IMG/VR virus record: IMGVR_UViG_3300049259_000045
Strand: one strand, 5' to 3'
DNA: 64,000 bases
Source of the DNA: an uncultured virus (IMG/VR IMGVR_UViG_3300049259_000045)
Lineage: Duplodnaviria > Heunggongvirae > Uroviricota > Caudoviricetes
A program made the translations under genes and the position numbers. This document shows positions 2 to 61,903 of the stretch, one piece after another. The notes under the pieces are model-generated. The model was not told the origin of the DNA and ran no database searches. It was given only the letters and a program-made list of their open reading frames with translations. Position 1 is the first letter of the stretch. The number at the start of each line of letters is the position of its first letter.

Positions 2-601
2 GATGACCGTGTCCTGCACCGTGTACAGGTCGTATCCCGCGTCGTCGTCGTGTCCGCGCGTCGGCAGGGTAACCTCGGGGTACTCCGGGGAGGCCTCGAA
101 GATGAGCGGGGTCGGGCTGAGGTGCGCGTCGATCCGGTCGGCCTCGTATCGGGCACTGGTGTCGACCACCCACGTGGCCAGCTCCGTGATGGAGTCGCCC
201 GGAAGAGTCACCCGGACGTTCGGGTACTCGACCCAACCAGCTACGGTCCAACTCACCTTGGCCACGTGATCCGTGACGATGACGATCGGCTTGCCGGTAA
301 CCAGGAACTGCTCGATCTCCGCCGGAACGCCGTACGTGATGACGTTGGACGGCAGGAACGCCACCAAGGCGCCGGACTGGTCGAGGGCGCTCTGGTTGAT
401 GCGGGTGATGAACGGCTCAGGGGGGTTGCCGCCGGTCTCGAACGCGTCGCGAGGGTTGTACACCGCCCATCCGGAGTTCAGCAGTGCCCGGTGCAGCTTT
501 CCCTCGACCTCCATCAGCTTGACCATGTCGCTGTCCGGCTGACGAGCGAAGTCCACGGGCTGAGCCCAGTAAGCGAGACCGGTCTTGACGTTGGTAGCCA
601 T
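2..601 (-). CDS. Partial (runs off the window): nucleoside 2-deoxyribosyltransferase/dNMP N-glycosidase-like domain fused to a trimeric dUTPase-like domain
   Basis: Not in the ORF track. Manual translation from ATG at 601 (SD AGGAG) gives MATNVKTGLAYWAQPVD...VYNPRD...LVAFLPSNVITYGVPAEIEQFLVTGKPIVIV (NDT-family Gxx-E-x6-GKP motif), then LPTRGHDDDAGYDLY (dUTPase motif I AGYDL). Confidence 0.75.
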   Translation of the reverse strand, partial: MATNVKTGLAYWAQPVDFARQPDSDMVKLMEVEGKLHRALLNSGWAVYNPRDAFETGGNPPEPFITRINQSALDQSGALVAFLPSNVITYGVPAEIEQFLVTGKPIVIVTDHVAKVSWTVAGWVEYPNVRVTLPGDSITELATWVVDTSARYEADRIDAHLSPTPLIFEASPEYPEVTLPTRGHDDDAGYDLYTVQDTVI

Positions 602-657: not shown

Positions 658-1098
658 TCAGTACGTTGAAGCTACAGCAGCCACGGTCTCGAAGGCGTGA
701 TGCCACGCCTGGTCGAGGCAGTAACGGCCGTTCATGCCGTTCTCAGTAACGCGTACGAACACCTGCTTGCGCGCGATGTCCGCCACCTTGACCAAGGGGA
801 ACCGTCGATCAGCCACGTAGTGCGTGACTCCCGAGATGGTCAGGGCAGTGACCAGGGACCGGGCGCTGAGATTGACTCCCAGCACCTTGGACCCCACCAC
901 CAATGCCACAGCCTGCGTGCCCACGTAACTGGCGACGTGCGCCGCACACGCCTTGCGACCTTCGGCCGAGGTGTGGCCAGCGTCGCTGTCGCGCCAGTGC
1001 TTGTTACCGGCTTGATGCTCGGATTGGACCCAGTGGTCCGCCACGTCGGCGGCAGCCCGCATCAGTACGTAGCGGGTGACTGCCTCCAGCGCCCTCAC
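658..1098 (-). CDS. DUF3307-like membrane protein
   Basis: ADHWVQ...K...AHV...THYVADRR...DQAWH His/Asp pattern with hydrophobic segments. Confidence 0.65.
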   Translation of the reverse strand: MRALEAVTRYVLMRAAADVADHWVQSEHQAGNKHWRDSDAGHTSAEGRKACAAHVASYVGTQAVALVVGSKVLGVNLSARSLVTALTISGVTHYVADRRFPLVKVADIARKQVFVRVTENGMNGRYCLDQAWHHAFETVAAVASTY

Positions 1099-1463
1099 GG
1101 CCAGCGCCCGTTGGCTCGGATGTACTGAGCCATGGCCATGTAGATCATGAGGTCCTTGAGCGTGTCGACGCTCGGCATCTTGCCGTGGATCATGGAGTCA
1201 GCGACCCGCTGCATCTTGCCGTAGGCGTAGACGAAGCACCCGAGTTCCAACGCCTCGGCAGCGTCGATCTCGCGTCCCTGACCTCGGGCGTACAACCGGC
1301 CCATCGCGGCCAGCGAGTTCGATCCGTACTCCTTGGCCTTGGCTCCGATCATCGGAGCCTCGGACTCCACCAGCTTTACCCACCACTCGGCGAACTCCAC
1401 CGGCACGTTATCCGATGTCAGAGCGCACTCGGGCGAGTTGCTGAGGTCTCCCAGGTCTACCAT
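1095..1463 (-). CDS. All-alpha NTP pyrophosphohydrolase-like protein (DUF1599/MazG-like; MazZ-type role likely)
   Basis: KAKEYG...K..R...DTLKDLMIY pattern; lies immediately downstream of purZ. Confidence 0.55.
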   Translation of the reverse strand: MVDLGDLSNSPECALTSDNVPVEFAEWWVKLVESEAPMIGAKAKEYGSNSLAAMGRLYARGQGREIDAAEALELGCFVYAYGKMQRVADSMIHGKMPSVDTLKDLMIYMAMAQYIRANGRWP

Positions 1464-1478
1464 GCTTGCTGTTCCCCC

Positions 1479-2591
1479 TTACAGGAAGATACCGGTCGCG
1501 GGACCGGTACCGATGAACTTGACTACACCGTTGGTCTCACCCATGACCTTCGAAGTGAGATCGATGATCTGACGCTGGCTGTATCGGTCGATCGCGCTCC
1601 AGGAGCTTTGATCGGCAGCCCCCGGGACCACCGAATCCACCATGGTGAGCGCGATATTGACCGACTTACCGCCGTTGGCCTCCAGTGCGTCCCGAACCAT
1701 GTCCGGGTCCCACTCGCCGACGCGTCGGACCTTGTTGGTGACCGTGGTGCGCTCCTCCGGCAGACCGAGGGCGTCCCATGTGGTCTCGCCCTTGAGCGGT
1801 CCGGAGTTGCCTGCCACGCGGATCGGTCGGACGCGAGCGGCCAACCACACCTGGAACTCGTCAACTGCGTCGTGCCACGGGCTCAACCCGGCCATGGCCA
1901 GGAAGTCGATGGCGCGACAATCCGAGCTGGTGCACTGCGGGTAGCTGCCCGCGTGTTGGCCGAGTCCGTAGCCCTGAGTCCCCTCAACGAGGACCGTGGC
2001 GCCCTCCCGCAGCCAGTTGTAGATCAGGGGAACGGTGTCGGCGCCCCCGATCGTGCTGCCGACCAGGTCCGCCGTTCGCCATACTCGGTCAGCCCGAGCG
2101 GCACCGATGCCTTTGGCGGTGGACCCCAGCCGCTTGACCAGGTCCGAGTCCTGCTCGATCTTGATGTGCTCGCCGGTCAGCACCGTGGCCGATCGGTCTA
2201 CCACCAGCCGACCGCTGACATCGTACCCAGCCAAATCGAGCTGGTCGACTTCGTGGTCGAGAACGCCCAGGTCCACCTCGGACCCAGCGGCGATGACCAG
2301 CATAGCGTCATCGTTGCTGACGGCGGCCACGGGGACGCTACGGAGCTTCCAGCGGTGGCCGTAGCCGAACGCGGGAAACGTCCGTCCTTCCGGCAGGTGG
2401 TGGTCTTCCGGCAGCTGAGCGCACCCCTGCGGGCAACGTCCGATAACGGTGTGCCCGGCATTCGGACCGGCAACTCGGACCGCCACCACAGGCGGCTGTC
2501 CCTGAGACTGTCGGGTGAGGTGATCGGCGACGGCGCCCTTACCTTCGGAGCCGAGTTGAGCACCTGCTACAACAATGAGTCTTCCACCCAC
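1479..2591 (-). CDS. purZ: N6-succino-2-amino-2'-deoxyadenylate synthase (PurA-like, PurZ0 type)
   Basis: GAQLGSEGKG (Ser in place of PurA Asp13), GPNAGHT, GSTAKGIG, EGTQG, YPQCTS, PIRVAGNSGPL, ERTTVTNKVRRVG, TMVD. Confidence 0.9.
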   Translation of the reverse strand: MGGRLIVVAGAQLGSEGKGAVADHLTRQSQGQPPVVAVRVAGPNAGHTVIGRCPQGCAQLPEDHHLPEGRTFPAFGYGHRWKLRSVPVAAVSNDDAMLVIAAGSEVDLGVLDHEVDQLDLAGYDVSGRLVVDRSATVLTGEHIKIEQDSDLVKRLGSTAKGIGAARADRVWRTADLVGSTIGGADTVPLIYNWLREGATVLVEGTQGYGLGQHAGSYPQCTSSDCRAIDFLAMAGLSPWHDAVDEFQVWLAARVRPIRVAGNSGPLKGETTWDALGLPEERTTVTNKVRRVGEWDPDMVRDALEANGGKSVNIALTMVDSVVPGAADQSSWSAIDRYSQRQIIDLTSKVMGETNGVVKFIGTGPATGIFL

Positions 2592-2624
2592 TGACGTACC
2601 TCTTCTCTGTTGTGGTACTACCCT

Positions 2625-2654
2625 ATTCTACCATGGGTGTGGTCTCCGGCACAA
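2625..2654 (-). promoter_or_regulatory. SigA/HrdB-like promoter for the purZ cluster
   Basis: TTGTGC-N18-TAGAAT. Confidence 0.6.
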
Positions 2655-2663
2655 GCCGGGCGG

Positions 2664-3152
2664 CTAGTATCCTTGACCCTTCAACTTTTGGCGTCGGATA
2701 TGATATAGCCCAAGACATTCGCTGTCTTTGGCGTGAGGTCCGTGACCATAGCTGGCCCAAGATCGTATCGGCCTGACCGGAGGACGGAACTCGATCAGTT
2801 TGTACAGCGCCTTGTGATCCACCGGTCTGTACCGACGCATCGGCACGTATGCTCGCCGACAAATGTGCTTCATGGCCCCGATCATCTCGGCAGTCTGGAA
2901 CTCCGAGCCCTGCTGCTCTCCCATCTTCCAACCGAACAGTTGGAACTTCTCGTACACTACGAGCTTGACCTGTCGACGCTGGCATGAGGTCACCAGCCGG
3001 TCGATTGTGGAATCAGGGTCAAGGTGCTCCGAGGTAAGGCACCTGGCCCCACTCCACACAGTGAGACCTACGTTGACGTCACCGGGATCGATCGACCACC
3101 ACTCCCCGGGCAGCAGATCGTCACACGCGAATCCGAGTGGGTCATCTTTCAC
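2664..3152 (-). CDS. RuvC-like Holliday junction resolvase
   Basis: SIDPG, VVYEKF, HAKDS acidic triad pattern. Confidence 0.75.
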   Translation of the reverse strand: MKDDPLGFACDDLLPGEWWSIDPGDVNVGLTVWSGARCLTSEHLDPDSTIDRLVTSCQRRQVKLVVYEKFQLFGWKMGEQQGSEFQTAEMIGAMKHICRRAYVPMRRYRPVDHKALYKLIEFRPPVRPIRSWASYGHGPHAKDSECLGLYHIRRQKLKGQGY

Positions 3153-3480
3153 GGGCTGGAAACCTCCTGTTATCGTCCGGAGGGATGAAGATGTACCGCA
3201 GAGCCTGCCCGTCCGGGGTCAACCGAATGGACGATCCTAGTCCGTTGGTCAACATGGGGGGCGCCCAGTCCGGTTGGTACAGAGCCACCTTGAGCTGAGA
3301 CAGGTCAAGAGTGGGCTGAAACACCGCCTCCAACCCGACGGACGGGTCTGGGACAGCCACCGCTCCGTCATGCATCAGGGCCCACCCGGGTAGTTCGAAT
3401 CTGTCCCCATCGAAGGGTCCGCCAACGAATTCCGCCACCTTGCCGGACAGCATCAGGCGCGCGTTGAACTCGGCTGTCAT
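3142..3480 (-). CDS. Hypothetical protein
   Basis: ATG at 3480 overlaps the upstream stop; FVGGPFDG motif. Confidence 0.55.
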   Translation of the reverse strand: MTAEFNARLMLSGKVAEFVGGPFDGDRFELPGWALMHDGAVAVPDPSVGLEAVFQPTLDLSQLKVALYQPDWAPPMLTNGLGSSIRLTPDGQALRYIFIPPDDNRRFPARER

Positions 3481-4070
3481 ACTTCCACCCCCAGTTGGTC
3501 GAACACGTCCCGAGCCCACAGTGCGTCAACCAAGGCGGTGTGTCCCTCGCCCTTCTTGGGCGGTTCGACGCCGATCCGGCGAGAAATCGAGTACGAATCC
3601 CAGGGCAACGTTACGGATTCGCCACGCCCGAGCAGCACGCCAGCGGCCAGCTCCAGCGCGTTTACTACCCGGTAATGCCATGGAGCCTGTCCGAGCAGTT
3701 CCCGCAGGAACGAAGCGTCGAACGCCGTGTTGGATCCGATCAGAATGGCCTTCATCAGCCGCCACGTGATGTCTTCGATCGCCTCGGCTCGGGTCATCGG
3801 GTAGGCTGCGCCGTCCACGATCCACGCGGCTTCGGAACCCTCCGGCACCATGAACCGCTCATGGAACCGGTTGATCTCCAGCGCTTTCGGCTCGGCCCTG
3901 TCGAGGTAGTGCGGACGGATCTGCCAGACCCCCACCAGCTCGGGGTTGGTGTAGAGCGACATGCGCTTGACGCGCTGCACAATGGCGATTTCCCAGGTTT
4001 CGTGAACCTTGGGGATAAGACCGGTGGTCTCCACATCGGCGAAGTCGAAGGTTATGATGTCAGTAGACAT
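3477..4070 (-). CDS. DnaQ-like (DEDDh) 3'-5' exonuclease
   Basis: DVETTGL, SNTAFD, HTALVDA; start reassigned to ATG 4070 (TGATG coupling). Confidence 0.85.
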   Translation of the reverse strand: MSTDIITFDFADVETTGLIPKVHETWEIAIVQRVKRMSLYTNPELVGVWQIRPHYLDRAEPKALEINRFHERFMVPEGSEAAWIVDGAAYPMTRAEAIEDITWRLMKAILIGSNTAFDASFLRELLGQAPWHYRVVNALELAAGVLLGRGESVTLPWDSYSISRRIGVEPPKKGEGHTALVDALWARDVFDQLGVEV

Positions 4071-4246
4071 CAGGAGTCTCCCGTCAGATAGGGGTTCATT
4101 GCGCTGCCCAACCGAGGGCGGTCGGGCCGGTAAATCTGGTGACACTCGCATCCGCAAACGCAACAGTCTTCGCTGCGTCGGCAGTGCCCAGGGCAACCCT
4201 CGTGATTGCCCTGGGCACAATCCGGAATCAAAGGCCGGTCGGCCAA
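4070..4246 (-). CDS. Small Cys/His-rich protein (58 aa)
   Basis: Manual translation MADRPLIPDCAQGNHEGCPGHCRRSEDCCVCGCECHQ...; fills the gap between polymerase and DnaQ and is coupled to DnaQ. Confidence 0.55.
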   Translation of the reverse strand: MADRPLIPDCAQGNHEGCPGHCRRSEDCCVCGCECHQIYRPDRPRLGSAMNPYLTGDS

Positions 4247-4249
4247 CGA

Positions 4250-6601
4250 TCAGCCTTTCTCGTCCCAGCGGTCGGGAGAAATCCCCCAGTTCATGTGCCG
4301 CTTCCGGACCGAGAAGTATTGTTCGAAGCACTTCTGACCGATCTCGGACACTAGCTGAGCCTCCTTGTGCCCCTTCTCGTCGTCGGTGTGCTCGGTAACC
4401 AACGAGTCGTGAATCTGGAGGAGCAGGACGCCCGGAAGCTGGCGCTCGATCTCCAGCATCCAGTAGATCATAGCACGGGCCAAGTTGCCCTGAATGATCT
4501 GGTTGACCGCGCTATTGGTCTTCTCACTCAGGCCGTACACTCGACGCCAGCCGTCCAGCATCGTCAGGTAGCCGCAGCCGCCCTCCCAGCGGGTGACCTT
4601 GTGGGTAGCCTGGTCGGTCAGCCTCTTGAATTCGGGATAGGTCTTGAAGAAGCTGGCGATAGCCGCCTTAGTGTCCGCCATCGAGATGGGAATGCCGGAC
4701 GCTGCTTCGATTTGGGTCATCAGGGCGTAGACACCGCCACCGTACAGGATGCCGAACGTACCACGCTTGGCCGCGTTCCGGAGGTCGTAGAACCGGGGAT
4801 GGTCCTTGTCGACACCGAACAGGGCCATAGCGTTCATCGCGTGGAGGTCAGCGCCAGCGTCGAGGGCATCCCACAGCTTAGTCGAGTTGGCAATGATGGT
4901 GACCACGCGCATCTCGCCGGTGGCGAGGTCGTGCTCGGCCTGGAAGCGGCCAGACCCGGGACGGGGTCCGATGAGCTTCCGGACGGGCACCGTGTCCTCC
5001 GGGATGAGTCCGCCGTGCGGGATGGCCTGAGCCTGCCAGCGGCCCACCGCGAGGCGCCCGGACACCGTTCCTCCGGCCGCGTCTGTGGCGCGGTCGAAAT
5101 CGCTCTTGGTCTGCTTATACCGGGTCCGAATCCGGCCGTCCTTGCCGGTTCGCATGGCCCAACCGGTGTACCACTTCGAGTCGGAGTTCCGCATCTTGGT
5201 CCACTGCATCATCTCCTTGGCCCAAGGTCGGTTCTCCGCCACCAGCTTCCGCAGCTCGGGGATGTCGAGTTTCGGCTGGCCGGTCTTCTCGGTGCGTTCG
5301 GTCGGTTCCAGCCCCATTCCGTTCTTGCCGTTGCATCCTGAGCAGGAGGCAGAGCACGAAGTCGGGTACGTAACCCGCTCGGCCCAGGGGTCGCCGTCTT
5401 CCGGTGACGGCATCTCGATCTGGCTGGCCTCCGGGCAGACCGGCCCGAAGTAGAACCTCTTGGCCTGCATGACCTTGGAGGGGTCGAACGGCATTGTGTA
5501 CGACAGCCGGTGGTGACGATCCCGGAGCTTGGCGCCCTCGGCCAGAGAGTCCTCGACAGCGTACTCGACGCCTCGACGCTCCATGCGGTAGAGGGTGGTC
5601 CGCAGCTCCATCTCGGTGCGGAGCAGTTCCCAGAATCCGGGCAACGTCTCGCCTGCTTCGGCGGATCCGACCTGGTAGTCCTTGAGCCGATAGGTGAGGT
5701 TGGTGTCCTTGGCCGCGTACCGGCCCATTGCGCCGCACCACGGCAACAGGTCGTAGCGTTTGGTCATCTTGACGCCGATCTTGGCCAGCTCCAGTTTCAG
5801 CTCTTCGGCCTCGGTGCCCTCGTCCTCCCCCCACAGACGCTTGGCGGTCTTCTTGAGGGCTGCAGGCTCGATCGGGTCGATCAGCTGCTTTTGGATGACC
5901 ATGGTGCACCAGATCTGGCGACGCCGAACAGCCGGGTTGATCAGAGGTTCGAGCGTCGGCTCCATCATATGCAGCCGTTGGGGCTTGTTCAGTTCCCAGG
6001 TGCCGGGCTCGCTGTCCGGGTCCCAAGCTCCCCAACCATCCCAGATGTCCGGGTTGCCGCCAGCCCCTGCACGTAGTCCGGCTGCAAACTCCGGCATGTC
6101 GTGAATCGAGTTGTGCATGGTCAGCGAGTCGCGCCGGTCCAACCACGCAATCAGGTTGGCGTAGTCGGTCGCGGGCAGGTTGGGCATGGCCAGCTCGGGC
6201 GTGACCTCGTAGCCCAGCACCTTCGACATAGCGACCAAGATCCGGTCCTGCTCGGCCTGGTCAATAACGCCAAACACGGCGTGGCCGGTGTCCGGGTCTT
6301 CGGTCGGCTTACCGGGCTTGCCCAGAACAGGGCCCTGATCGAACGGCCACGCGAAGTCGAGCAGCTCGCCCGGCTCTACGCTCTTGATGTTGCCATGAGC
6401 GTCGTATCGAGTCACTGGCTGACGGAAGCTGACCGACACCACGGAGATCCGAGCCTCGGGCTGCGGCGGATTGTTGCCGGACTTGAAGGGCTCTCCGTCC
6501 TTGTAAAGGCCGGACCCCTCGGTGTCCACGCTGACATCCCAACCGGGCGGAAGTTCCGGCAGCAGGTCGTCGCCAACCTTGGTGAGTTGGGTAATCGGCA
6601 T
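4250..6601 (-). CDS. Family A DNA polymerase (candidate DpoZ)
   Basis: Exo motifs DTEGSGL, HNSIHD, YAAKD; GTVSGRL; motif A DLATGEMR; motif B RNAAKRGTFGILYGGG; motif C QIHD. Confidence 0.9.
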   Translation of the reverse strand: MPITQLTKVGDDLLPELPPGWDVSVDTEGSGLYKDGEPFKSGNNPPQPEARISVVSVSFRQPVTRYDAHGNIKSVEPGELLDFAWPFDQGPVLGKPGKPTEDPDTGHAVFGVIDQAEQDRILVAMSKVLGYEVTPELAMPNLPATDYANLIAWLDRRDSLTMHNSIHDMPEFAAGLRAGAGGNPDIWDGWGAWDPDSEPGTWELNKPQRLHMMEPTLEPLINPAVRRRQIWCTMVIQKQLIDPIEPAALKKTAKRLWGEDEGTEAEELKLELAKIGVKMTKRYDLLPWCGAMGRYAAKDTNLTYRLKDYQVGSAEAGETLPGFWELLRTEMELRTTLYRMERRGVEYAVEDSLAEGAKLRDRHHRLSYTMPFDPSKVMQAKRFYFGPVCPEASQIEMPSPEDGDPWAERVTYPTSCSASCSGCNGKNGMGLEPTERTEKTGQPKLDIPELRKLVAENRPWAKEMMQWTKMRNSDSKWYTGWAMRTGKDGRIRTRYKQTKSDFDRATDAAGGTVSGRLAVGRWQAQAIPHGGLIPEDTVPVRKLIGPRPGSGRFQAEHDLATGEMRVVTIIANSTKLWDALDAGADLHAMNAMALFGVDKDHPRFYDLRNAAKRGTFGILYGGGVYALMTQIEAASGIPISMADTKAAIASFFKTYPEFKRLTDQATHKVTRWEGGCGYLTMLDGWRRVYGLSEKTNSAVNQIIQGNLARAMIYWMLEIERQLPGVLLLQIHDSLVTEHTDDEKGHKEAQLVSEIGQKCFEQYFSVRKRHMNWGISPDRWDEKG

Positions 6602-7158: not shown

Positions 7159-7266
7159 TCAGCGGTACGAGAGTATAACGTCGGCGGTCACCAGAAACCC
7201 GAGGGTAGCCAGAAAACCTACAGTCAGTACTGCCAGGAACTTGGCAGTGTCGATCAGGAGCTTCAC
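7159..7266 (-). CDS. 35-aa single-TM peptide
   Basis: GTGA overlap with the helicase stop; MKLLIDTAKFLAVLTVGFLATLGFLVTADVILSYR. Confidence 0.45.
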   Translation of the reverse strand: MKLLIDTAKFLAVLTVGFLATLGFLVTADVILSYR

Positions 7267-9116
7267 GTGTTCACCCGACGGGCGTGAGTGCTGAACTTGG
7301 CGACGTGTCGAGTGAGGGGACTCTGGGTCCACCGGATGTTCTTGGCCCTGCTGTCGGCGATGTACACGCGGCCGGTGTCCTCGGTCGTGCGGACCAGACG
7401 CCCGATGCCCTGCGCGAGGGTCTGCAGCATCGAGTCCGAGTAAACCTGCCGACCGTGGATCTTCTCGATGGCCTTCACTTCAAGGGTGGGCACGCCCCAG
7501 GGCAGCCGGTAGATGATCACCTGCCGGAGAGCGTCACCCGGGACGTCAACGCCTGTCCACATCGACGTGACGCCTCCCATCACCGCGTGGCCGTGCGCCT
7601 TGAAGATGCGCAGGCACTCGTCGGTGTCGGCGGGGTCGGTCTGCGACTGGGCCAGAACGGGCACCGAGCGCTTAAGACCCTTGGCCACGTGCGGCATGAC
7701 CTCGTTGAGGTCTTTCCAGGAGGTGAACAGGATCAGCGTCCCGCCCCCTCCCTGCTCGTGGCTCCGGCCGCACATGTCGTTGACTGCGGCCACGGTCTCC
7801 TGAACCCGGTTCCAGTTCAGTTTCGGATCGTTGCCTCGGTGGGAACTGATGGCCAGTGTCGACCGACTGTAATCGAACGGAGTGCCGACGTCCTCCAGTG
7901 GGGCGTCACTGACGCCCATCCGGCGGGGTAGGGTCTGCGGGACCGTGCCGGACACCAAGACGGACGGCTGTCGGGTCAGAATGTCCCGGAAGATGAACGA
8001 GGAATCCACGCACAACGTGTTGAGGGCGGGTTCGAGGTCGGTGCCCCCCTGGTTCTCCAGGGTGATGGTGCTGATGAACCGACCGTACTCGTCCGGGGTG
8101 GCGAAGTCCACGAACCGCTGATGGGCTCGCATCTGCTTCTTGATGACCCTGGCCATGGCACGGTCCTGTTCGGCAACCGCTACTTCAAGCTGAGCGTCGA
8201 GACGGTCCAGCTCCTTGGTGGACTGCGCCACCATACCGGCCAGCTGCTCGTCCCCCTCGGATTCGACGGACCTCTCGCGGTTGAACTCAGTGAGACCGGC
8301 GGTCATGCCCGCTACCCAGATGTCGAGTCCAGGAATCTCGCGGAATACCGCGCTATTGCGCTTGATCTGGTCCGACATGCACGACCGGCCTACGTCGTCC
8401 AGGGCGTGCGCCTCGTCCACGAACAGGGTGTTGAACGCGGGAAGCAGCCCGTTAGCGCCGTTGGTGAATCCGAGAACTCGCCAGTCCCAGACCAGAAGGT
8501 GGCCGTTGGTGATGACTACCTCGGCCTTGGACGCCTCGAACCGGGCGATTTGGACCGCGCAGAGGTCGCCCAACGCGTCATCACAGTCTCCGGAGCACCC
8601 CCACGAATTGTCGAGTCCGTGCTGGGCCCACTCCAGCTTGCCGTCCTTGACGAACTTCTTGAACAGTTCGTTGGGGTCCGGCTCCTGGCTCATCGAGAAG
8701 GACGCGGTGCACAGGTAGCGGTTCCGACCCTTGAGGTACTCGAACCTGCCGCCGGTGGCTTGGGCGATCTTGGGTGCGTCGGTGTGGACGTACTGGTCGA
8801 TCAAGTTGTTGGTAGGGCAGACCACCACCGAGGGCAACCGCTTCGAGTTCGTACGAGCTGCTTCAAGAGCCGCCGTCAGCATCACGTAGCTCTTGCCGGT
8901 ACCGGTGCCAGCCTGCGCGAATCGAGTGCTCTGGTCGCTGATGGCCTCGCGAGCGATTCCGATCAACTTGGTCTGCTGAGGTCGAGGCTCCAGGTTCATC
9001 GACTTCATGACCTGCTCGAAGATCTGATCTCCGTATTTCAAGTCTCTGTCCACTCTATCTGTTTGAAATACGACTCGGCTCCCCCGAGTCGTCGTGTGGA
9101 TGGTGCGTGGTACCAT
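7263..9116 (-). CDS. DinG/XPD-family SF2 helicase with Fe-S-type cysteines (true start probably downstream of 9116)
   Basis: RPQQ Q-motif, AGTGTGKS, KGRNRYLC...C..DC...C, DEAH, LILFTS, WTGVDVPG, QGIGRLVR. Confidence 0.85.
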   Translation of the reverse strand: MVPRTIHTTTRGSRVVFQTDRVDRDLKYGDQIFEQVMKSMNLEPRPQQTKLIGIAREAISDQSTRFAQAGTGTGKSYVMLTAALEAARTNSKRLPSVVVCPTNNLIDQYVHTDAPKIAQATGGRFEYLKGRNRYLCTASFSMSQEPDPNELFKKFVKDGKLEWAQHGLDNSWGCSGDCDDALGDLCAVQIARFEASKAEVVITNGHLLVWDWRVLGFTNGANGLLPAFNTLFVDEAHALDDVGRSCMSDQIKRNSAVFREIPGLDIWVAGMTAGLTEFNRERSVESEGDEQLAGMVAQSTKELDRLDAQLEVAVAEQDRAMARVIKKQMRAHQRFVDFATPDEYGRFISTITLENQGGTDLEPALNTLCVDSSFIFRDILTRQPSVLVSGTVPQTLPRRMGVSDAPLEDVGTPFDYSRSTLAISSHRGNDPKLNWNRVQETVAAVNDMCGRSHEQGGGGTLILFTSWKDLNEVMPHVAKGLKRSVPVLAQSQTDPADTDECLRIFKAHGHAVMGGVTSMWTGVDVPGDALRQVIIYRLPWGVPTLEVKAIEKIHGRQVYSDSMLQTLAQGIGRLVRTTEDTGRVYIADSRAKNIRWTQSPLTRHVAKFSTHARRVNT

Positions 9117-10625: not shown

Positions 10626-13481
10626 CTAGTTCAGGCTGGACCGTTCTATTGCTATGATCTGGGCAAGATTGAGCTTGGACGGGTCGCTAGCCTCGCCCTG
10701 CCCGATCTCCACGCCGATCTTCTCCAGTACCTTGATGGTGATCTCGGGGGGCACCCGCATGTACTTAGACCGGCTCCGACCGCCGTCCAACACGGTGCCG
10801 ACTACCCCAAACTGCGCCCAGTCTTTGTTACGTTCGCCAGCTCGATTTCCCTTCATACCGAGCCGCGCAGCCTGGTCCATCAGGGCAGCCTTGGTCTCGG
10901 TGCGTTCTTCAACCTTTCCCCGCTGTCGCTGTTCCCACCAAGCAGCCAGGCTGTCGATGTGAACCCACATGCTCCGCTCTCCGTCCGGATCTCCAGGAGC
11001 CGTGCAGTAGATCATCGGCGACACGATGTTGTGATGTGCGCCGCTGTTGATCCGGATGGGGGAGGTCGGTACGTCCAGCGCCAGCACAGCCGCTGGCATG
11101 ATCTTCATGGTCAGGGCGTTCTCGTCGCCGGTGTCCGGCCGTGCCTGCGCCCAGTTGTCCACCCGCTCGATGTGAGCCGGGTCTCGGGTGATGTCAGCCA
11201 AGATGCGGGCACCAACGCGCAAGATGGCCATCTTGTCAGCGTGCCTACCCCCGACGCTAGCCCCGTTTGCCAGCTTGCTGGTCCGCAGGGCAACGAAATC
11301 GGCCAGATGCTTCGTTGCCCTGCGGAGAATCATTTGAACAAGAGTACCGGAGAACACGGTAAGGCCGGTGTCCCCTCCGTACTTGTTCATCAGGTCCAGG
11401 ATGTCGTCCCACTGCGGCCTTGTCGGGTCGTGCAGGCTCTTCCGGCCCTTGGGGTTGGGCAAGCTCATGGTAACAATGCGGTCGGACAGGGCCTTGTCTT
11501 CCAGCAGGCTCGATCCTTCCATCGAGATCCACACCGGCGACAGCAGACGAGACCTGACCGTGGATTGGTTGTCCTCGCCCTTTTTGTCGACAGAGCCCTC
11601 GACGGTTGCCTGTCGCAACAGTTCCTTGATGTTATCCACGTTATCCGCGTCGTCCACGTGGACCGGCGCCCCTCGGTGAGCGGTCATGGCGTCCCGGATC
11701 GATGCCCGGGTGCCGATTCCGCCTTCCTTGGTGCGGTTGCCGAACATTTGGTGGATCAGCTGGCTGAACCCCTTGGACTTACCGGACTCGCTGGCTGCCT
11801 GTACCAGGAAGATCGGGAACAGGGACGATTTAGACATCAGCTGGCCCTTGATGACGCTGGCCACCATCCAGGAAGTGAATACCGATGTGAATTCCTCGTC
11901 GTGGAAGGTCATGACCTCCTTGAGGACTTCCCGAGCTTCACTCTCCGGCCGGAATCCGTAATGATGGTCTACCAAGTTGTTTATCATGAGATTCTTGGCC
12001 GGTCGGACCGAAGCATCTGGGTCAACGCCCTTGGCTGTGATTACGCCCTCGTACGTAATGAACCCGCCAGCTTGGTCGTCCCACCCGAGGAAGTTGGTAA
12101 CCCTGCGATTGGCCGGATTCTGGCTTCGCAACAGCTTCTGCAGCCGGACGCCCGGACCGCCGCGCTTGGCTCGGTCGTCGGTGAAGTACAGGGAACATTG
12201 ATACCCCATTGCCCACCCACGCAAGGCCGCTGTGCTGGTAAGCACGCGGTCCGGCAGCTCGACGTCCTGGAACACTTTTCCGTCATCCCGGATTAGATCG
12301 ACGGTCCAAACCGTGGATCCGTCCAGGGTGTTGACGCTGGTGGCCTGGACTTGAAAGTCGCTGAACGGGACGATTTCGACTTCCGGCCCCTTCTTGCCCA
12401 TGTAGTCCCGGACCGTGTTGTACCCAAAATGGCCATCGGTTCGGTCCACCAGAGTGCCGGACGCTTCGTTGAAGGTAGCGTTACCGCGCTCCCGGAGCTT
12501 GGCTTTCTCCTTGCCCCACATCCGTCGAAGCTGGTCCTGTACTAGCTGGTCCGGCTGAGGATTCTTGGATGCCCTCTCGTAGTTCAGCACGAACGCTAGA
12601 GCGACCTCGAACGGCAGGCCCTTCGTGACGAACATGTTGGCGACACCGCCAGCGATGGACAGGCTGTTGTCGTTTCCTCGACCCTGAGCGTCCGGCTTGA
12701 CCAAGGCGTTAACATACCACGGCTTAGCCTGGTCAACCTCGCCAGGCATGCTGATCGGATCCGGCAGATCGTCCTCAGTTGCTGTAGCGGTTTTGTGGTC
12801 GCTGACATGCTCTCGTAGGCCCTTGACCCACGCTGGCGGAAGTTCAGCAAGCTCGGCCACGGCCGGAACTCGGTTGGCCTGCTTACCGTCGGGAGTGTAC
12901 CAGGTTTCGACACGCACCTTGGTAGGATCGAGCTTGTCCTTGACCTCGGACGGCCAAACCACCGCGTATCGGTGCCGGTACTGAATGATCTCGATGTCAG
13001 GAGAGGGGTCGGTGGGCCACTTCACCCCGTCCGGCACCTGATAGAACCGCTTCCCGGACGGACCTTCTCCTCGGGAGGTGCTGACCCAGCTTGCCGGGAG
13101 CGGCCCCCACTTTTTCTCCAGCTCGGCAAGCTGGTCAGCGCCGTGTTTGTCGTCGTACTGGTCGACATCCACTGCGATAACGTTACCGGGCAGCCGGATT
13201 CCGATGTTGGTGGCGCTCTCGTGGCTCCAACCGTGCAACCTCTTGTCGTCCGGCCAGCCGCCATTATCGCCGGTGAATCCGGTGGGAACGGGCGACTTGC
13301 TGAGCTTGGGCAACCTGAGAGTGCCCAGCCAGCCAGCTTCGCGGTATTCGTTGAAGGCTCTGGCAAACGGACCTCGTCCGGGGACCATTGAACAATCGGC
13401 ACTCAAGGTGCAGTAGGTGCTACGTTGGGTAGCCACAAGCTGCACTTGCGCGCTGTCTCCGCCCGTGGTTTCGTAGGACAT
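10626..13481 (-). CDS. Bifunctional primase-polymerase (AEP) / PriCT / P-loop helicase
   Basis: NIGIRL...AVDVD AEP motif, GRGNDN PriCT-like segment, AASESGKS Walker A, VHVDD Walker B; start at 13481 after GGAAGGG. Confidence 0.8.
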   Translation of the reverse strand: MSYETTGGDSAQVQLVATQRSTYCTLSADCSMVPGRGPFARAFNEYREAGWLGTLRLPKLSKSPVPTGFTGDNGGWPDDKRLHGWSHESATNIGIRLPGNVIAVDVDQYDDKHGADQLAELEKKWGPLPASWVSTSRGEGPSGKRFYQVPDGVKWPTDPSPDIEIIQYRHRYAVVWPSEVKDKLDPTKVRVETWYTPDGKQANRVPAVAELAELPPAWVKGLREHVSDHKTATATEDDLPDPISMPGEVDQAKPWYVNALVKPDAQGRGNDNSLSIAGGVANMFVTKGLPFEVALAFVLNYERASKNPQPDQLVQDQLRRMWGKEKAKLRERGNATFNEASGTLVDRTDGHFGYNTVRDYMGKKGPEVEIVPFSDFQVQATSVNTLDGSTVWTVDLIRDDGKVFQDVELPDRVLTSTAALRGWAMGYQCSLYFTDDRAKRGGPGVRLQKLLRSQNPANRRVTNFLGWDDQAGGFITYEGVITAKGVDPDASVRPAKNLMINNLVDHHYGFRPESEAREVLKEVMTFHDEEFTSVFTSWMVASVIKGQLMSKSSLFPIFLVQAASESGKSKGFSQLIHQMFGNRTKEGGIGTRASIRDAMTAHRGAPVHVDDADNVDNIKELLRQATVEGSVDKKGEDNQSTVRSRLLSPVWISMEGSSLLEDKALSDRIVTMSLPNPKGRKSLHDPTRPQWDDILDLMNKYGGDTGLTVFSGTLVQMILRRATKHLADFVALRTSKLANGASVGGRHADKMAILRVGARILADITRDPAHIERVDNWAQARPDTGDENALTMKIMPAAVLALDVPTSPIRINSGAHHNIVSPMIYCTAPGDPDGERSMWVHIDSLAAWWEQRQRGKVEERTETKAALMDQAARLGMKGNRAGERNKDWAQFGVVGTVLDGGRSRSKYMRVPPEITIKVLEKIGVEIGQGEASDPSKLNLAQIIAIERSSLN

Positions 13482-13649
13482 GTATGTCCCTTCCCGGGTG
13501 CTGGCGGTCTGGCCTCCGTCACACCCGATAGCGGTCACTTGGTGCCCTCGGTCGTCTTGGCAGGCGCAATCCGGGGGCACTGCTATGTTCAGCTTGAGAT
13601 TATCGGCTTCATTTAGTCAAACCTCGTCTGGTAGGGGTCTGGAGACTCC

Positions 13650-33728: not shown

Positions 33729-35192
33729 CTAGCTTCCAAACCCTCCTCGGCCGTAGCCACCAGAGCCGTATCCGAATGACGGGCCTACAAACAGCCGGAT
33801 GGCCGTAGTATTGCAGCTTCGATACCCTCCGGCGCCGAAGTTCACTGTGTTGCTGATGATCAGAAACTGGTCATTCAATCCGGCCACGTAGTTGTTTTCG
33901 GAATCCGGGATGAATTGATTGACTACGGTAACCGTTTGGCCAGAACGGGCAAACCCAGCCCATGACTCGTCGGTCGTCCAGGTCAGTCTCTCCGCCGGGA
34001 ACGAGTATTCTTGTCGCTCTCGCAAGGCTCGACTTAGCGCCATGGGCACCGTTATCAAGCTGGTGTCATTGATGTACTCGGAGAATATGCCGCCGTTAGG
34101 CCCGTTATAGGTAGCCTGCGAATTGAAGTCATTGGCTTGAGCTACCACCGGGGCCTGATAGTCATACCAGATCTTGATGATCTCGCCAGCCGCCGGAGCG
34201 GCGATAGTGTTGGTCAGGGACCAAGCTCCGATACTGTTCTGCACAATTTGCCAGGTACCGGTACCGGTGGAGCCGCTGTCAACCAGGGTTACATCCACCA
34301 CAATGTCGCCTACGGACAGCACCGGAGTGCCGGTCACCGTGTATCGCAGCGGCCAAGATTGCTGCGCCCCGTTGCCCAACCAAACGTCAGTTGGGCTGTT
34401 GTCGGTGCTACCGAACGCTATGGTCTGGTTGGCTCCTTGAACCAAGATCCGGTTTCTCAACGAAGTGGCGTCCCACTCATAGCTGAAACTACCGTCCAGC
34501 GAGAAATGACCCTCAGTGGCCGATCCACCGGTTCCCGTGGGAGAGGTGGTGAACGTAACCCCGGAACTCTGTGCCGATGTGGCGTCGAAGAAGTGTAGTT
34601 TCAAGTTCTCATCGACGTACCATCCGTACGGGGTGGCTTGCCCAGCTAGCTGGGCCAAGGTGCGCCACGCGGACGACAGCGAGGTGTAATTCAGCACAAA
34701 ACTGGCAAGCTGAGGTCCGGGGCTGATGAAACCGCCATCTGCCACGGTCGCGGCGGTTATTCCGCAGTTGGCCTGCTGAACAAGCTGGATCACTATTTGG
34801 TCGACTGTCAACCCGTAGAAGACGCCATGAACGGTGGCGTTGTCCGCGTAGAACGTGAAGTCAGTGCACTGCAGCGTCCACTCATTGCGAACGGGGCCGG
34901 TCACGCTGAACAACGGGTCGTTGCACACTCCGGCAAACAAAGTTTGCGAAATGGCGTTATCGACCAACTTGACAGTGGACATGGCCGGGACAACGATGTT
35001 CTGGGTTGTCAGGTATTCGTCTATCAGGGGGAACGTGGCGGTGTCACCCTGCCTACCGAACTGCTGAGATATACTGGGCTGCCCAGCGGCCCCCGACCAA
35101 GCAAGCTGATTGCTGTAGTCGACCGGGGAGCCGCCGGGAGGCGTAACAGTAAACGTCAGGTTCGGACTAGCAACCGAACCGGGCATCATCAC
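33729..35192 (-). CDS. Tail tip / hub minor tail protein
   Basis: Immediately after the tape measure; WYVDENLKLHFF. Confidence 0.65.
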   Translation of the reverse strand: MMMPGSVASPNLTFTVTPPGGSPVDYSNQLAWSGAAGQPSISQQFGRQGDTATFPLIDEYLTTQNIVVPAMSTVKLVDNAISQTLFAGVCNDPLFSVTGPVRNEWTLQCTDFTFYADNATVHGVFYGLTVDQIVIQLVQQANCGITAATVADGGFISPGPQLASFVLNYTSLSSAWRTLAQLAGQATPYGWYVDENLKLHFFDATSAQSSGVTFTTSPTGTGGSATEGHFSLDGSFSYEWDATSLRNRILVQGANQTIAFGSTDNSPTDVWLGNGAQQSWPLRYTVTGTPVLSVGDIVVDVTLVDSGSTGTGTWQIVQNSIGAWSLTNTIAAPAAGEIIKIWYDYQAPVVAQANDFNSQATYNGPNGGIFSEYINDTSLITVPMALSRALRERQEYSFPAERLTWTTDESWAGFARSGQTVTVVNQFIPDSENNYVAGLNDQFLIISNTVNFGAGGYRSCNTTAIRLFVGPSFGYGSGGYGRGGFGS

Positions 35193-50628: not shown

Positions 50629-50723
50629 AGGGCTCCCTAGTTGTCGGTCAGCGACCGGTTGTGGTGTTGACGGCAGCGTACCCGGCTTCGGTCGCTGACT
50701 GAAAATCGACACATCAGGGTGAC

Positions 50724-51004: not shown

Positions 51005-51217
51005 GGCGTTTAGATCGTCAGGCTCTAGAACCAAGGGCGCCTCGCCAAGCTTCAAGCGAGGCGCCCAACGGGCTCCCGGACCACGGAGAACGTAGCCGAA
51101 ATCGGTCGTGACCGAGTCCCACTTGAGGGTCACATGCGCCCCCAGATCCTCCAGCTCGTTCATCAGTTCCGCTGCTCTGGTCAAGGCGTCCACGATACGT
51201 TCGCGCTGTTCACTCAC
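51002..51217 (-). CDS. Hypothetical protein
   Basis: GTGA coupling to the portal stop. Confidence 0.55.
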   Translation of the reverse strand: MSEQRERIVDALTRAAELMNELEDLGAHVTLKWDSVTTDFGYVLRGPGARWAPRLKLGEAPLVLEPDDLNA

Positions 51218-61095: not shown

Positions 61096-61830
61096 CTACC
61101 CGTTGAACAGGTAGTGGAACAGCGGACCACCGATCGAGTAGTCGTGCACATCCGAGCCGTTGGCCTCTTCACGGGCGTACTTCACCGCTCGTTGCAGTTC
61201 CCCGATCCGACTCAGCAGCTCGTTGACGTGATTCAACGGAGTAGCGCCGGACGCCTTGATCGTGGTCCAGTAGCCGACGGAGATGTCCTCCATCCACACG
61301 TCGACTTGAGCGGGGTGGCGTTCGGTGGCCTCGGCCTTGACGTGGTTGCGGGGGACTTTCTTGCTCCGCACGGTACGCACCGGCTCGGTCGTCCAGACAC
61401 CCAGCTCCTGGTTGAACGACCACTGTTCCGCCGGGTCCAACGTGGGGATCTTGGAGATCAGCGTCCGGAGGTCGGTCAGCTTCTTCTCCAAGAACAGCAG
61501 ATACGTCACCGGAACGTCCGTGGCCAGGGTCCGCGCGCCGACCACGATGTCCGCCTTGGCGGTGGTGTTGGCTATGTCCTTGGTCAATGTGACATCCAGG
61601 AGCTGGGCCAGCCCCTCGGCGACGTTCTGCAGGACCTGCGACACGCTGAGCTGTACCCGAGTCGATTCGGGCGGAAGCTGCTCGCCTTCCTCGTCCTTCG
61701 GCTGGTACGTCCGCGAGATTCCGGCCAGCAGGTTGTTGCGCTGCAAATCGTGGTACGCCTTGGTGACGACACTCTCGGCCGTGGACTTAACGCCCTTCTC
61801 GACCGCGATGATCTGATTGAGCTTGGCCAC
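61096..61830 (-). CDS. Uncharacterised helical protein (recalled as DUF7873-like)
   Basis: MAKLNQIIAVEKGVKS...LAGISRTYQPKDEEGEQLPPESTRVQ...HPAQV...AREEAN; GTG start after AGGAG. Confidence 0.75.
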   Translation of the reverse strand: MAKLNQIIAVEKGVKSTAESVVTKAYHDLQRNNLLAGISRTYQPKDEEGEQLPPESTRVQLSVSQVLQNVAEGLAQLLDVTLTKDIANTTAKADIVVGARTLATDVPVTYLLFLEKKLTDLRTLISKIPTLDPAEQWSFNQELGVWTTEPVRTVRSKKVPRNHVKAEATERHPAQVDVWMEDISVGYWTTIKASGATPLNHVNELLSRIGELQRAVKYAREEANGSDVHDYSIGGPLFHYLFNG

Positions 61831-61873
61831 GCTCGTGCTCCTACTGAGATTGTGGGATTGCTCTGTGGAGGGC

Positions 61874-61903
61874 ATCCTACCATGGCAGGGGCTGGCGTGT
61901 CTA
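61874..61903 (-). promoter_or_regulatory. SigA/HrdB-like promoter
   Basis: TAGACA-N18-TAGGAT. Confidence 0.6.

Follow-up and report, generated by a model that had tools for sequence, protein, structure and literature searches.

A new member of the PurZ0-type gene sets for 2-aminoadenine DNA in an actinophage, with an unnamed four-helix protein next to PurZ0

The DNA we have analyzed, which we call the window, is a stretch of 64,000 nucleotides from an uncultured virus (IMG/VR IMGVR_UViG_3300049259_000045). It comprises most of the genome of a siphovirus-like actinophage. Its nearest relatives are Hiyaavirus phages of Streptomyces and UViG_3300046782_000218, an IMG/VR contig of 89 kb. A megablast search with the region described here gave no close DNA match, and coverage did not exceed 15% of the region. 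The genes found are shown in Table 1. The features that we confirm from the initial annotation are not due to chance, being located in proteins which match curated families with E-values from 1e-30 to 1e-96.

Table 1. Genes at the beginning of the window, with their positions and the basis of each assignment
Feature	Position	Strand	Content or basis
DmtZ-DutZ fusion	2..601	-	NDT-like dAMP hydrolase/transferase domain, linker, first ~30 residues of dUTPase-like domain
Predicted membrane protein, 146 aa	658..1098	-	phrog_2470 'membrane protein', E 4.3e-17
Four-helix domain protein of an unnamed family, associated with PurZ0, 122 aa	1095..1463	-	AF2 model, linkage to PurZ0
PurZ0-type succino-amino-deoxyadenylate synthase, 370 aa	1479..2591	-	NF038379, PDB match, tree, motif columns
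162-aa protein, no assigned role	2664..3152	-	phrog_5202 (unknown function), E 1.5e-9
125-aa ORF, no assigned role	3142..3519	-	ORF list
DnaQ-like 3'-5' exonuclease	3477..4331	-	phrog_192 'DNA polymerase exonuclease subunit', E 8e-19, residues 98-281
Hiyaavirus-type family A DNA polymerase, 783 aa, with a 3'-5' exonuclease region at its N-terminus	4250..6601	-	PF00476, E 3.4e-32

Neither the 146-aa membrane protein nor the 162-aa protein matches any Pfam or NCBIfam family, and Pfam and PHROGs searches gave no family for the 125-aa ORF. The membrane protein gene, located between the four-helix gene and DmtZ-DutZ, has no known pathway membership. The exonuclease ORF also matches PF00929 (8.6e-4), under the cut-off of that model. 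As delimited mechanically, it overlaps the 3' end of the polymerase gene; its true start is probably an internal Met near 4070, directly ahead of the FADVETTG motif.

The 370-aa protein matches PF00709 (E 4e-31) and phrog_1211 (E 9.5e-76). It passes the NCBIfam PurZ model NF038379 (322.5 bits, cut-off 300) and fails all five PurA equivalogs (score/cut-off: 183.9/368, 119.4/395.55, 104.2/402, 72.1/445 and 49.6/700). Its best match in the PDB is 7VF6 (1.4e-79), the PurZ0 of phage Archimedes (PMC12884076). The next matches are Pyrococcus horikoshii PurA (5K7X, 1.8e-32) and phiVC8 PurZ (6FM1, 1.7e-20), with S-2L PurZ (7ODX, 5e-13) and Escherichia coli PurA (1.5e-10) further down.

Two motifs are of particular use. 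GSEGKG occupies residues 14-19 of the protein (2535-2552 of the window), TMVD residues 316-319 (1635-1646 of the window). When the protein is aligned with E. coli PurA, the Ser of GSEGKG falls in the column of the Asp of GDEGKG, and TMVD falls in the column of TKLD. The P-loop is GDEGKG in PurA, GSE[AG]KG in all eight PurZ0 sequences, that of the window included, and GSTGKG in all five PurZ sequences. The column of the TKLD Asp contains Asp in 8/8 PurZ0 and Asn in 5/5 PurZ. In a larger alignment (A4, 60 rows) D319 is invariant in every row and S15 is nearly invariant. The PurZ0 of the window also has a lineage-specific, Cys-containing insertion at about 2364-2441.

In a maximum likelihood tree of 33 rows, with no archaeal PurA among them and E. 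coli PurA as the sole outgroup, the window protein has the Hiyaa, Spocter and Galactica proteins as its sister group (99/98). All seven reference PurZ0, that of Archimedes included, belong to one clade with it (97/99), and the five reference PurZ make up another (100/99). By the curated model, the phylogeny, the nearest solved structure and the two motif columns, this protein is a true PurZ0. The initial annotation had described a PurA-like enzyme with the Asp13-to-Ser change and an equivalent of TKLD, and had placed it in the PurZ0 type: The alignment, the Pfam match and the tree bear this out.

It is extremely improbable that we are dealing with an ordinary auxiliary adenylosuccinate synthetase, which would raise AMP synthesis in a phage with canonical DNA. 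The protein does belong to PF00709, and it keeps PurA-like residues of the GTP site, Glu in GSE and Asp in TMVD. Nevertheless, it has Ser in the catalytic Asp13 column, where 99% of 251 PurA-clade sequences have Asp and 100% of 147 phage PurZ/PurZ0 have Ser (PMC12884076). The five PurA equivalogs score far under their cut-offs while the PurZ model is passed, and the gene is linked in the genome to DmtZ-DutZ.

The PurZ0 of the window would use GTP; this, like all the enzymatic activities considered here, is predicted from homology to the enzymes of Ghobes, Wayne and Archimedes. Tong et al. are said to have found in 2023 that PurZ0 uses GTP. The TKLD Asp would decide between GTP and ATP in PurZ0, as is said to be reported in the PurA literature and in that same work. 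One sentence in PMC12884076 gives the opposite order of nucleotides, 'ATP and GTP, respectively'. The introduction of a bioRxiv paper is consistent with GTP use being ancestral and ATP use derived.

The DmtZ-DutZ fusion was overlooked in the initial annotation. The 3' part of this gene is lost beyond the start of the window. Its start is likely the ATG at 601, although the mechanical ORF extends to a GTG at 706. The protein has 34% identity (E 1e-27) with the N-terminal domain of Hiyaa gp69, which matches PF05014 and PF00692. In DmtZ the catalytic triad is Tyr6, Asn77 and Glu103, to which Asp12, Pro57 and Trp124 are added (Ghobes numbering, roles from PMC12884076); all six residues are invariant in an alignment of five rows (A3) which includes the window ORF. 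For DmtZ, as for PurZ0, the identity, the family and the catalytic residues are established at the level of sequence, and so are the order of the genes and the linkage of the four-helix domain in the genomes. As for DutZ, the ~30 residues inside the window (LPTRGHDDDAGYDLY...) align with the beginning of the dUTPase domain in Hiyaa, Galactica and RAP15, and this short tail matches the phrog_135 dUTPase (1.1e-5). All of the 98 PurZ0 genomes in PMC12884076 carry dutZ; 85 of them carry dmtZ, fused to dutZ in 77.

The same gene order found in the window (PolA, PurZ0, a protein with the four-helix domain at its end, DmtZ-DutZ fusion) is present in the Hiyaavirus phages Hiyaa, Spocter and Galactica and in UViG_3300046782_000218. 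The synteny covers helicase, PolA, PurZ0, four-helix domain, DmtZ-DutZ and a PurB-like lyase in this contig, which is the closest relative, and in Hiyaa and Galactica. All three encode the lyase, while none is found within the window. The window PurZ0 is 68% identical to that of the contig and 56% identical to those of Hiyaa and Spocter; identities for PolA range from 58 to 77%. An insertion after NAGHTV in PurZ0 is common to the window and these relatives. There are also differences: The four-helix domain is a protein by itself in the window but makes up the C-terminal end of larger proteins in Hiyaa (419 aa) and Galactica (315 aa), and in the window a membrane protein gene is inserted before DmtZ-DutZ. 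The set is of a known kind, the PurZ0-type genes for replacement of adenine by 2-aminoadenine in DNA, and the window adds a new member to it.

The family A polymerase mentioned in the initial annotation is indeed present. It has 58% identity over its full length with Hiyaa gp56. The best NCBIfam model is phage_DpoZ_2, with 222.5 bits, which does not reach the cut-off of 350; phage_DpoZ_1 gives 41.6 (cut-off 500). Motif B is TFGI[LI]Y, with Tyr, in the window (TFGILY), Hiyaa, Galactica and the IMG/VR relative. Phe is found at position B4 of this motif in Wayne, RAP15, Ghobes, Goodman and phiVC8, and also in LazerLemon, a non-PurZ phage with no PF00709 match anywhere in its record. According to PMC10201439, Phe at B4 is common to both DpoZ clusters; the correspondence of B4 with Klenow Y766 is our own reading of that paper. 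LazerLemon is found among the polymerases of PurZ0 phages in the best tree (84/96). Forcing the eight rows from PurZ0 phages into a single group lowers lnL by 7.07 (p-AU 0.164), so monophyly with the Wayne-like DpoZ to the exclusion of the non-Z phage is neither demonstrated nor rejected. With a score below the NCBIfam cut-off, no motif-B Phe and an ambiguous position in the tree, this polymerase cannot be assigned to DpoZ.

We think it probable that these genes are the part of a lytic-type actinophage genome which serves replication and nucleotide metabolism, and that this phage makes 2-aminoadenine (Z) DNA through the PurZ0 route. The DutZ domain would turn dATP into dAMP and dGTP into dGMP. 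The fused DmtZ domain would split adenine from dAMP, and might transfer deoxyribose-5-phosphate to free Z. PurZ0 would then join dGMP and aspartate, with GTP as phosphate donor, giving N6-succino-2-amino-dAMP, from which an adenylosuccinate lyase would free dZMP. The lyase may be the phage's own, encoded beyond the window edge, or that of the host; the closest relatives encode one themselves. Host kinases would make dZTP, and the phage polymerase would insert Z opposite T in a pool depleted of dATP. Virion DNA likely contains Z. Some observations do not favor this model: The DutZ domain is cut after ~30 residues, the window shows no gene for a PurB-like protein, and the polymerase is under the DpoZ cut-off, has Tyr at B4 and belongs to a part of the tree where LazerLemon is intermixed. 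PMC13128860 states that most dZ genomes predicted from PurZ lack proof.

These features of the polymerase, together with the p-AU value, would suit a phage which makes dZTP and substitutes Z only in part, its Hiyaavirus-type polymerase not being Z-selective and the A/Z ratio being set solely by depletion of dATP by DutZ and DmtZ. We find this improbable. Two predicted dATP-removing activities are encoded, and S-2L attains complete replacement of A by Z without a Z-specific polymerase, according to PMC10201439, so control of the pool can suffice.

Other Z-DNA systems show both likenesses and differences. PurZ0 enzymes of the Archimedes/Ghobes type have the GSE P-loop and the Asp in the TKLD column, as in the window, with an identity of about 44%. 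Their polymerases are just 27-29% identical to that of the window, and Ghobes encodes DmtZ and DutZ in two genes, while they are fused in the window and in Wayne. The Wayne/Korravirus module of Arthrobacter phages has a PurZ0 of the same type, the fusion and the same gene order. It differs in the B4 residue of the polymerase and in the slot after PurZ0, which in Wayne and RAP15 is occupied by DUF5664 (PF18909), unrelated to the four-helix domain of the window. In phiVC8, S-2L and the Acinetobacter phages the logic is the same: dATP is depleted, dGMP is supplied, and an Asp13-to-Ser paralogue of PurA leads from dGMP to dZMP. These phages also have a small gene directly downstream of purZ. On the other hand, PurZ of the phiVC8/S-2L type belongs to a different clade, with GSTGKG and Asn for the TKLD Asp, and PurZ phages carry an HD-type DatZ and a MazG-type MazZ in place of DutZ and DmtZ (PMC12884076).

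The four-helix gene is located 16 nt downstream of PurZ0 and has a GC3 of 0.85. The initial annotation described its product as MazG-like and as a possible source of dGMP. The ORF is real and adjoins PurZ0, but a MazG-like nature could not be confirmed, and the characterised dGMP suppliers and dATP removers of PurZ0 phages are DutZ and DmtZ (PMC12884076, experimental), whose gene lies outside the part covered by that annotation. The family has 25 relatives apart from the window copy. In these 26 rows, neither MazG nor PF18909 (DUF5664) is matched in Pfam at E<=10. PHROGs and NCBIfam give no match for the window ORF, and a PDB profile search with the family found nothing. Alignment of the family (A1) with DUF5664 (A2) by hhalign gives a probability of 0.07, and with a three-row MazZ alignment 0.16; BLASTP gives no alignment with RAP15 gp51. 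The ExxE...ExxD metal-binding motif, which all three MazZ sequences of that alignment have, is missing from the invariant columns, and no catalytic motif of known NTP pyrophosphatases is detectable. These searches do not place the protein in DUF5664-1, and membership in MazG/MazZ cannot be demonstrated, a weak fold resemblance being all that is left.

This resemblance comes from the AF2 model of the 122-aa protein (pLDDT 85), which has four helices. In a wide fold search only S-2L MazZ (7ODY: Z 6.2, rmsd 2.6, 64 aligned) and a mouse structure (2A3Q: Z 5.9, rmsd 3.3, 77 aligned) span all four. Many unrelated helical structures have Z 5.7-6.7 in the same search, and the fold tool itself notes that scores of about 6 are noise level for helical bundles. 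In Foldseek iMazG has the highest probabilities (0.41 and 0.35), with no hit at E<=0.001.

The association with PurZ0 is very constant. In Hiyaa, Galactica, Goodman and Ghobes a homologue is encoded directly after PurZ0; that of Ghobes, gp51, has 38% identity (2e-21). The four-helix gene is directly downstream of PurZ0 in 80/80 IMG/VR loci (39/39 clusters), and in a reverse survey the domain adjoins PurZ0 in 9/9. Among 150 metagenomic representatives, 15 have it fused to the C-terminal end of PurZ0. PF00709 is present in these 15 fusions and in three of four longer proteins with the domain; for the fourth, no Pfam domain is recorded. Every fusion partner identified in these 15 fusions and four proteins has a PurA-like domain. 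In the present survey, linkage to PurZ0 is tighter for this domain than for DmtZ. We conclude that it is an unnamed four-helix domain, companion of PurZ0.

What this companion does may be considered in two ways. It would work with PurZ0, either as a new dGTP/dATP pyrophosphohydrolase in the slot of MazZ and DUF5664 or as a non-catalytic partner. A highly diverged, all-alpha enzyme of the MazG/MazZ type feeding dGMP to PurZ0 is a possible, somewhat doubtful reading. The slot suggests it: In ZP6, OH and Bhz9 the gene directly after purZ codes for a pyrophosphohydrolase, either MazG-type or DUF5664/DUF550, and the DUF5664 protein of Wayne hydrolyses dATP and dGTP (PMC12884076). The predicted four-helix bundle, the two fold matches over its whole length and the iMazG hits point the same way, and the invariant K, R, D, N and Y residues of the family would suit nucleotide binding. 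The empty profile searches, the absence of ExxE...ExxD and the noise level of the fold scores count against it. A subunit or regulator of PurZ0 with no catalytic role, concerned for instance with assembly, with allosteric control or with the delivery of substrate, can also be put forward tentatively, given the natural fusions, the constant adjacency, the lack of other fusion partners and of known catalytic motifs. However, the conserved charged residues resemble a ligand site, and the Arthrobacter PurZ0 phages lack the domain and have the enzyme DUF5664 instead, which fits better with an enzymatic role.

In summary, we see an even chance that the four-helix domain belongs to the core of the PurZ0 pathway, a component so far unrecognised, and, separately, that the Hiyaavirus-type PolA is a possible third independent adaptation to Z-DNA. 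If so, the domain would found a new protein family. This family would then consist either of dGTP/dATP pyrophosphohydrolases of a new class, which replaced or preceded MazZ and DUF5664 in the slot after PurZ0, or of obligatory subunits of PurZ0.

The initial annotation had proposed a PurZ0-type module for 2-aminoadenine (Z) DNA at one end of the window, and this main claim holds: the enzyme passes the curated PurZ model, falls in the PurZ0 clade, has 7VF6 as its best solved structure and carries the PurZ0 motif columns. The ORF, with N-terminus MGGRLIVVAGAQLGSEGKG, matches PF00709 (4e-31) and phrog_1211, "2-aminooxy adenylosuccinate synthetase" (9.5e-76). The NCBIfam model NF038379, "succino-amino-deoxyadenylate synthase PurZ", is passed with 322.5 bits (curated cut-off 300), while the scores for the five NCBIfam PurA equivalog models are far under all their cut-offs (183.9 vs 368 for the best one). 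In the ranking of solved structures, 7VF6 (1.4e-79) is followed by P. horikoshii PurA 5K7X (1.8e-32) and phiVC8 PurZ 6FM1 (1.7e-20); S-2L PurZ 7ODX (5e-13) and then E. coli PurA (1.5e-10) are found lower. According to PMC12884076, 7VF6 is the PurZ0 of Gordonia phage Archimedes. A tblastn search of 50,697 phage records gave matches in 200 of them. The Streptomyces phages Spocter and Hiyaa are at the top (56%), followed by Gordonia, Arthrobacter and Microbacterium phages (41-46%) and by PurZ phages of Vibrio, Acinetobacter and others (27-32%).

Features of the window mentioned in the text (window positions)
Feature	Position	Strand	Length	Remarks
DmtZ-DutZ fusion	2-601	(-)		from likely ATG start (mechanical ORF 2-706), cut by window edge
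Four-helix protein	1095-1463	(-)	122 aa	
PurZ0	1479-2591	(-)	370 aa	
Insertion in PurZ0	~2364-2441	(-)		residues ~51-76
DnaQ-like exonuclease	3477-4331	(-)		mechanical ORF
PolA	4250-6601	(-)	783 aa	
DinG-like helicase	7263-9116			
PrimPol	10626-13580			
Tape measure	35189-39397			
Zinc ribbon protein	48052-50712	(-)	886 aa	double zinc ribbons (PF12773, 7.5e-11); between portal and capsid
Portal protein	51214-55623	(-)	1469 aa	PF04860, phrog_2662; C-terminal NUDIX hydrolase
Terminase	58730-60349			start of gene run ending at Z module
DUF7873 protein	61096-61875	(-)	259 aa	very strong match (1.7e-104)

A maximum likelihood tree of 33 rows agrees with this placement. It includes the window enzyme, seven reference PurZ0, five reference PurZ, E. 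coli PurA as the only outgroup and 19 metagenomic representatives, which are every sixth of the 330-400 aa proteins among the best 150. The phylogeny proposed as a check thus places the window enzyme, together with all seven reference PurZ0, in a clade (97/99) apart from the five reference PurZ, which form their own (100/99). The sister of the window enzyme is the group of Hiyaa, Spocter and Galactica, all Streptomyces phages (99/98).

The GSEGKG and TMVD motifs noticed in the initial annotation are correct, as seen in the alignment with E. coli PurA, and both columns separate PurZ0 (8/8, including the window) from PurZ (5/5). The P-loop is GDEGKG in E. coli PurA, GSE[AG]KG in PurZ0 and GSTGKG in PurZ. 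The column of LTKLD in E. coli PurA has LTMVD (the window motif), LTMLD, ITMLD, LSMAD or LSFAD in PurZ0, always with the Asp retained, and LNFCN, LNFMN or LNFAN, with Asn, in PurZ. This Asp, D319 of the window enzyme, is invariant in all 60 rows of a wider PurZ0 alignment. Tong et al. 2023 (Nat Microbiol) reportedly found that PurZ0 uses GTP. The introduction of the PurZ0 bioRxiv preprint presents the use of ATP/dATP as a derived state of PurZ, which agrees with GTP for PurZ0. One sentence in PMC12884076 gives the reverse order of nucleotide donors; it conflicts with the motif columns, with this introduction and with the reported finding of Tong et al. 2023, and is probably a slip.

Insertions are found in some of these enzymes. 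After the conserved NAGHTV, the window PurZ0 has an insertion with the pattern G.CP..C...H, common to Hiyaa, Spocter, Galactica and some metagenomic representatives. A long insert is present here in eight of the 60 rows of the wider alignment, and one of these rows (representative P0044) has a zinc-ribbon-like CPEC...CSFC instead; the insertion may be a metal-binding knuckle on a variable part of the surface. In another representative (P0065, 737 aa), PurZ0 is split by an intein-like Hint and LAGLIDADG insert.

The ORF at the window edge extends past the window start. Read from an internal ATG at 601, its product is 34% identical (1e-27) to the N-terminal domain of Hiyaa gp69, a fusion of an NDT-like domain (PF05014, 3.4e-5) and a dUTPase (PF00692, 5.7e-27). 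All six residues which matter in DmtZ of phage Ghobes by mutagenesis or modelling (Tyr6, Asp12, Pro57, Asn77, Glu103 and Trp124, according to PMC12884076) are invariant in a five-row alignment including the window ORF, which runs on into LPTRGHDDDAGYDLY, the beginning of a dUTPase-like domain, before it is cut. The same paper counts dutZ in all of 98 PurZ0 genomes; 85 of them have dmtZ, which is fused to dutZ in 77. The actual dATP/dGTP-handling genes of the module would be those at the window edge, overlooked in the initial annotation. The closest relative found, an 89-kb IMG/VR contig (UViG_3300046782_000218; PurZ0 68% and PolA 77% identical), contains helicase, PolA, PurZ0, four-helix protein, a complete DmtZ-DutZ of 307 aa and a PurB-like lyase (PF00206, 6.1e-35). 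PurB-like lyases are also encoded by Hiyaa and Galactica.

The small gene which follows PurZ0 had been read as MazG-like, and its membership in that family is unsupported. The protein has no match in Pfam, PHROGs, NCBIfam or PDB. We have collected 25 relatives, none of which has a Pfam domain; the 26-row family is characterized by a KA.xYGSNSLA turn, by ALELG...Y..(G/E)K..R..D and by P..D(T/S)..D...Y..M with a W at the end, and ExxE...ExxD is absent from these conserved features. The invariant residues include K42, N49, R86, D89, D100 and D104. Pfam finds MazG or PF18909 in none of the 26 members at E<=10. The hhalign probability is 0.16 against a three-row alignment of MazZ (ZP6, OH and phiVC8 p26) and 0.07 against a 20-row DUF5664 alignment, and a PDB profile search with the family gives no match.

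The AlphaFold2 model built from the 26-row alignment has four helices and is a confident one (pLDDT 85.1, pTM 0.71). Foldseek finds no PDB match to it at E<=0.001, and its top two probabilities (0.41, 0.35) are both for iMazG. A wide VIA fold search gives no row at Z>=8, most rows being two-helix hairpins. All four helices are covered in two rows: S-2L MazZ 7ODY (Z 6.2, rmsd 2.6, 64 aligned) and 2A3Q (Z 5.9, rmsd 3.3, 77 aligned). These model comparisons are compatible with a MazG-like bundle, yet they fall inside the noise which the tool states for helical proteins. The nearest ESM Atlas clusters are viral hypotheticals, in some of which 10-14% of the members have PF07659 (DUF1599); this is a lead only, and PF07659 is found by Pfam in none of the 26 family members at E<=10. 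A predicted complex of PurZ0 with the 122-aa protein scores 0.01 against a mark of 0.32 without controls, and is counted neither for nor against.

The distribution of this domain is closely linked to PurZ0. In cultured phages, the gene directly 3' of PurZ0 is homologous to it in Hiyaa (gp68, C-terminal 100 aa, 46%, 3e-29), Galactica (gp66, 46%, 4e-30), Ghobes (gp51, 38%, 2e-21) and Goodman (gp55, 38%, 8e-17). The family HMM matches these four and Spocter among nine reference loci. The same slot matches the DUF5664 HMM in the Arthrobacter phages Wayne and RAP15, and the partial loci of phiVC8 and of LazerLemon, a Streptomyces phage, match neither HMM. Natural fusions are also found: among the best 150 of 2817 metagenomic PurZ0-like representatives (at 50% identity), 15 have the four-helix domain C-terminal to PurZ0 (E 5e-17 to 2.7e-33), and they make up 15 of the 18 with at least 440 aa. 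A family-profile search for longer proteins gave four, three of them with PF00709 and the fourth with no Pfam domain on record. A single polypeptide of 1367 aa (P0111) contains PurZ0, four-helix, HIRAN, dUTPase and SAP domains.

In IMG/VR, we have surveyed the best 80 of 308 stretches with a PurZ0 relative, a sample biased towards the nearest relatives of the query, with 32 of the 80 loci in one cluster (PurZ0 identity at least 80%). All 80 loci and all 39 clusters have a four-helix domain on the strand of PurZ0, with its start between -21 and +939 nt relative to where the PurZ0 match ends; DUF5664 is present in none of the 80. For 33 of these clusters, 2500 nt or more of downstream sequence exists; all 33 have Dut and 26 have DmtZ. 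The reverse survey, from the four-helix domain, shows PurZ0 just upstream in 9/9 loci, a small yield because the pattern scan is insensitive. In the PurZ phages ZP6, OH and Bhz9, the gene after purZ codes for a MazG-type or DUF5664-DUF550 pyrophosphohydrolase. Considering the linkage in cultured phages, metagenomes and IMG/VR, and the contents of this slot in PurZ phages, the four-helix domain always accompanies PurZ0 outside Arthrobacter phages, next to it or fused to it, and fills the slot held elsewhere by a dGTP/dATP pyrophosphohydrolase.

The polymerase matches PF00476 (3.4e-32). It is 58-60% identical to the Hiyaa and Galactica enzymes at full length, and 27-29% identical to those of Wayne, Ghobes and Goodman. 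A tblastn search at E<=1e-20 gives 147 records, of which 105 are from Arthrobacter phages, 18 from Microbacterium, 16 from Streptomyces, 6 from Gordonia and 1 each from Curtobacterium and Micrococcus phages. The PurZ search gives equal counts for Arthrobacter, Microbacterium and Gordonia, but only 5 Streptomyces records instead of 16; therefore some related polymerases belong to phages without PurZ. LazerLemon is the one such phage checked, and PF00709 is not found in its whole record. The family A polymerase of this phage (4639-6989), which has no PurA-like gene, groups among the polymerases of PurZ0 phages and carries Phe in motif B; a MazG gene lies directly upstream of it.

The best NCBIfam model for the window PolA is phage_DpoZ_2, with 222.5 bits (cut-off 350). 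In two small trees of 10 and 11 rows, the window, its IMG/VR relative, Hiyaa and Galactica form a clade (100/100), whose sister group consists of Ghobes, Goodman, Wayne, RAP15 and LazerLemon (83-84/96-98). Constraining the eight PurZ0-phage rows to one clade costs 7.07 lnL (p-AU 0.164, small tree), so a single clade is neither supported nor rejected. PMC10201439 assigns a Phe at motif-B position B4, which in our own reading of that text is Klenow Y766, to both DpoZ clusters. Phe is found here in Wayne-type phages, phiVC8 and the non-Z LazerLemon; the window PolA and its three nearest relatives have Tyr. Because of the low score, the Tyr at B4 and the tree placement, we have not filed this enzyme as DpoZ, a membership left unsupported. 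It may be unselective or independently adapted; S-2L is described in the same paper as fully substituted with no Z-specific polymerase. A separate DnaQ-like exonuclease gene adjoins this PolA, which has its own exonuclease region; since the mechanical ORF shares 82 nt with the polymerase gene, its true start is probably internal.

Almost all window genes are on the minus strand, in the order terminase, portal fusion, tape measure, lysins, recombination genes, PrimPol, DinG-like helicase and Z module, with a GC content of ~0.62 throughout. No deposited phage is close in DNA: Megablast matches of 1095-6601 cover at most 15% of the query and all are Streptomyces phages of the Hiyaa group. The NUDIX domain of the portal protein (PF00293, 3.3e-17, residues 1322-1444) might be a virion-associated nucleotide hydrolase of a candidate Z-DNA phage, with the nucleotide pool of the host as a possible target at entry.

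Z-genomes are resistant to many restriction enzymes and are of interest to synthetic biologists, and PurZ0 phages are a less studied branch of Z-DNA phages. Given the genes encoded, the virion DNA of this phage quite likely contains Z. dZ-DNA has already been predicted for over 2000 viruses, according to PMC13128860, and the window, ordinary in itself, adds one more Hiyaavirus-like, uncultured-looking PurZ0 member. The most interesting outcome is the four-helix domain, which points to a specific gap, open to experiment, in the PurZ0 gene set as published: the parts consulted of PMC12884076 and of the PurZ0 bioRxiv preprint make no mention of it. In addition, candidate Z-phages of the Hiyaavirus type use a polymerase without the published DpoZ signature.
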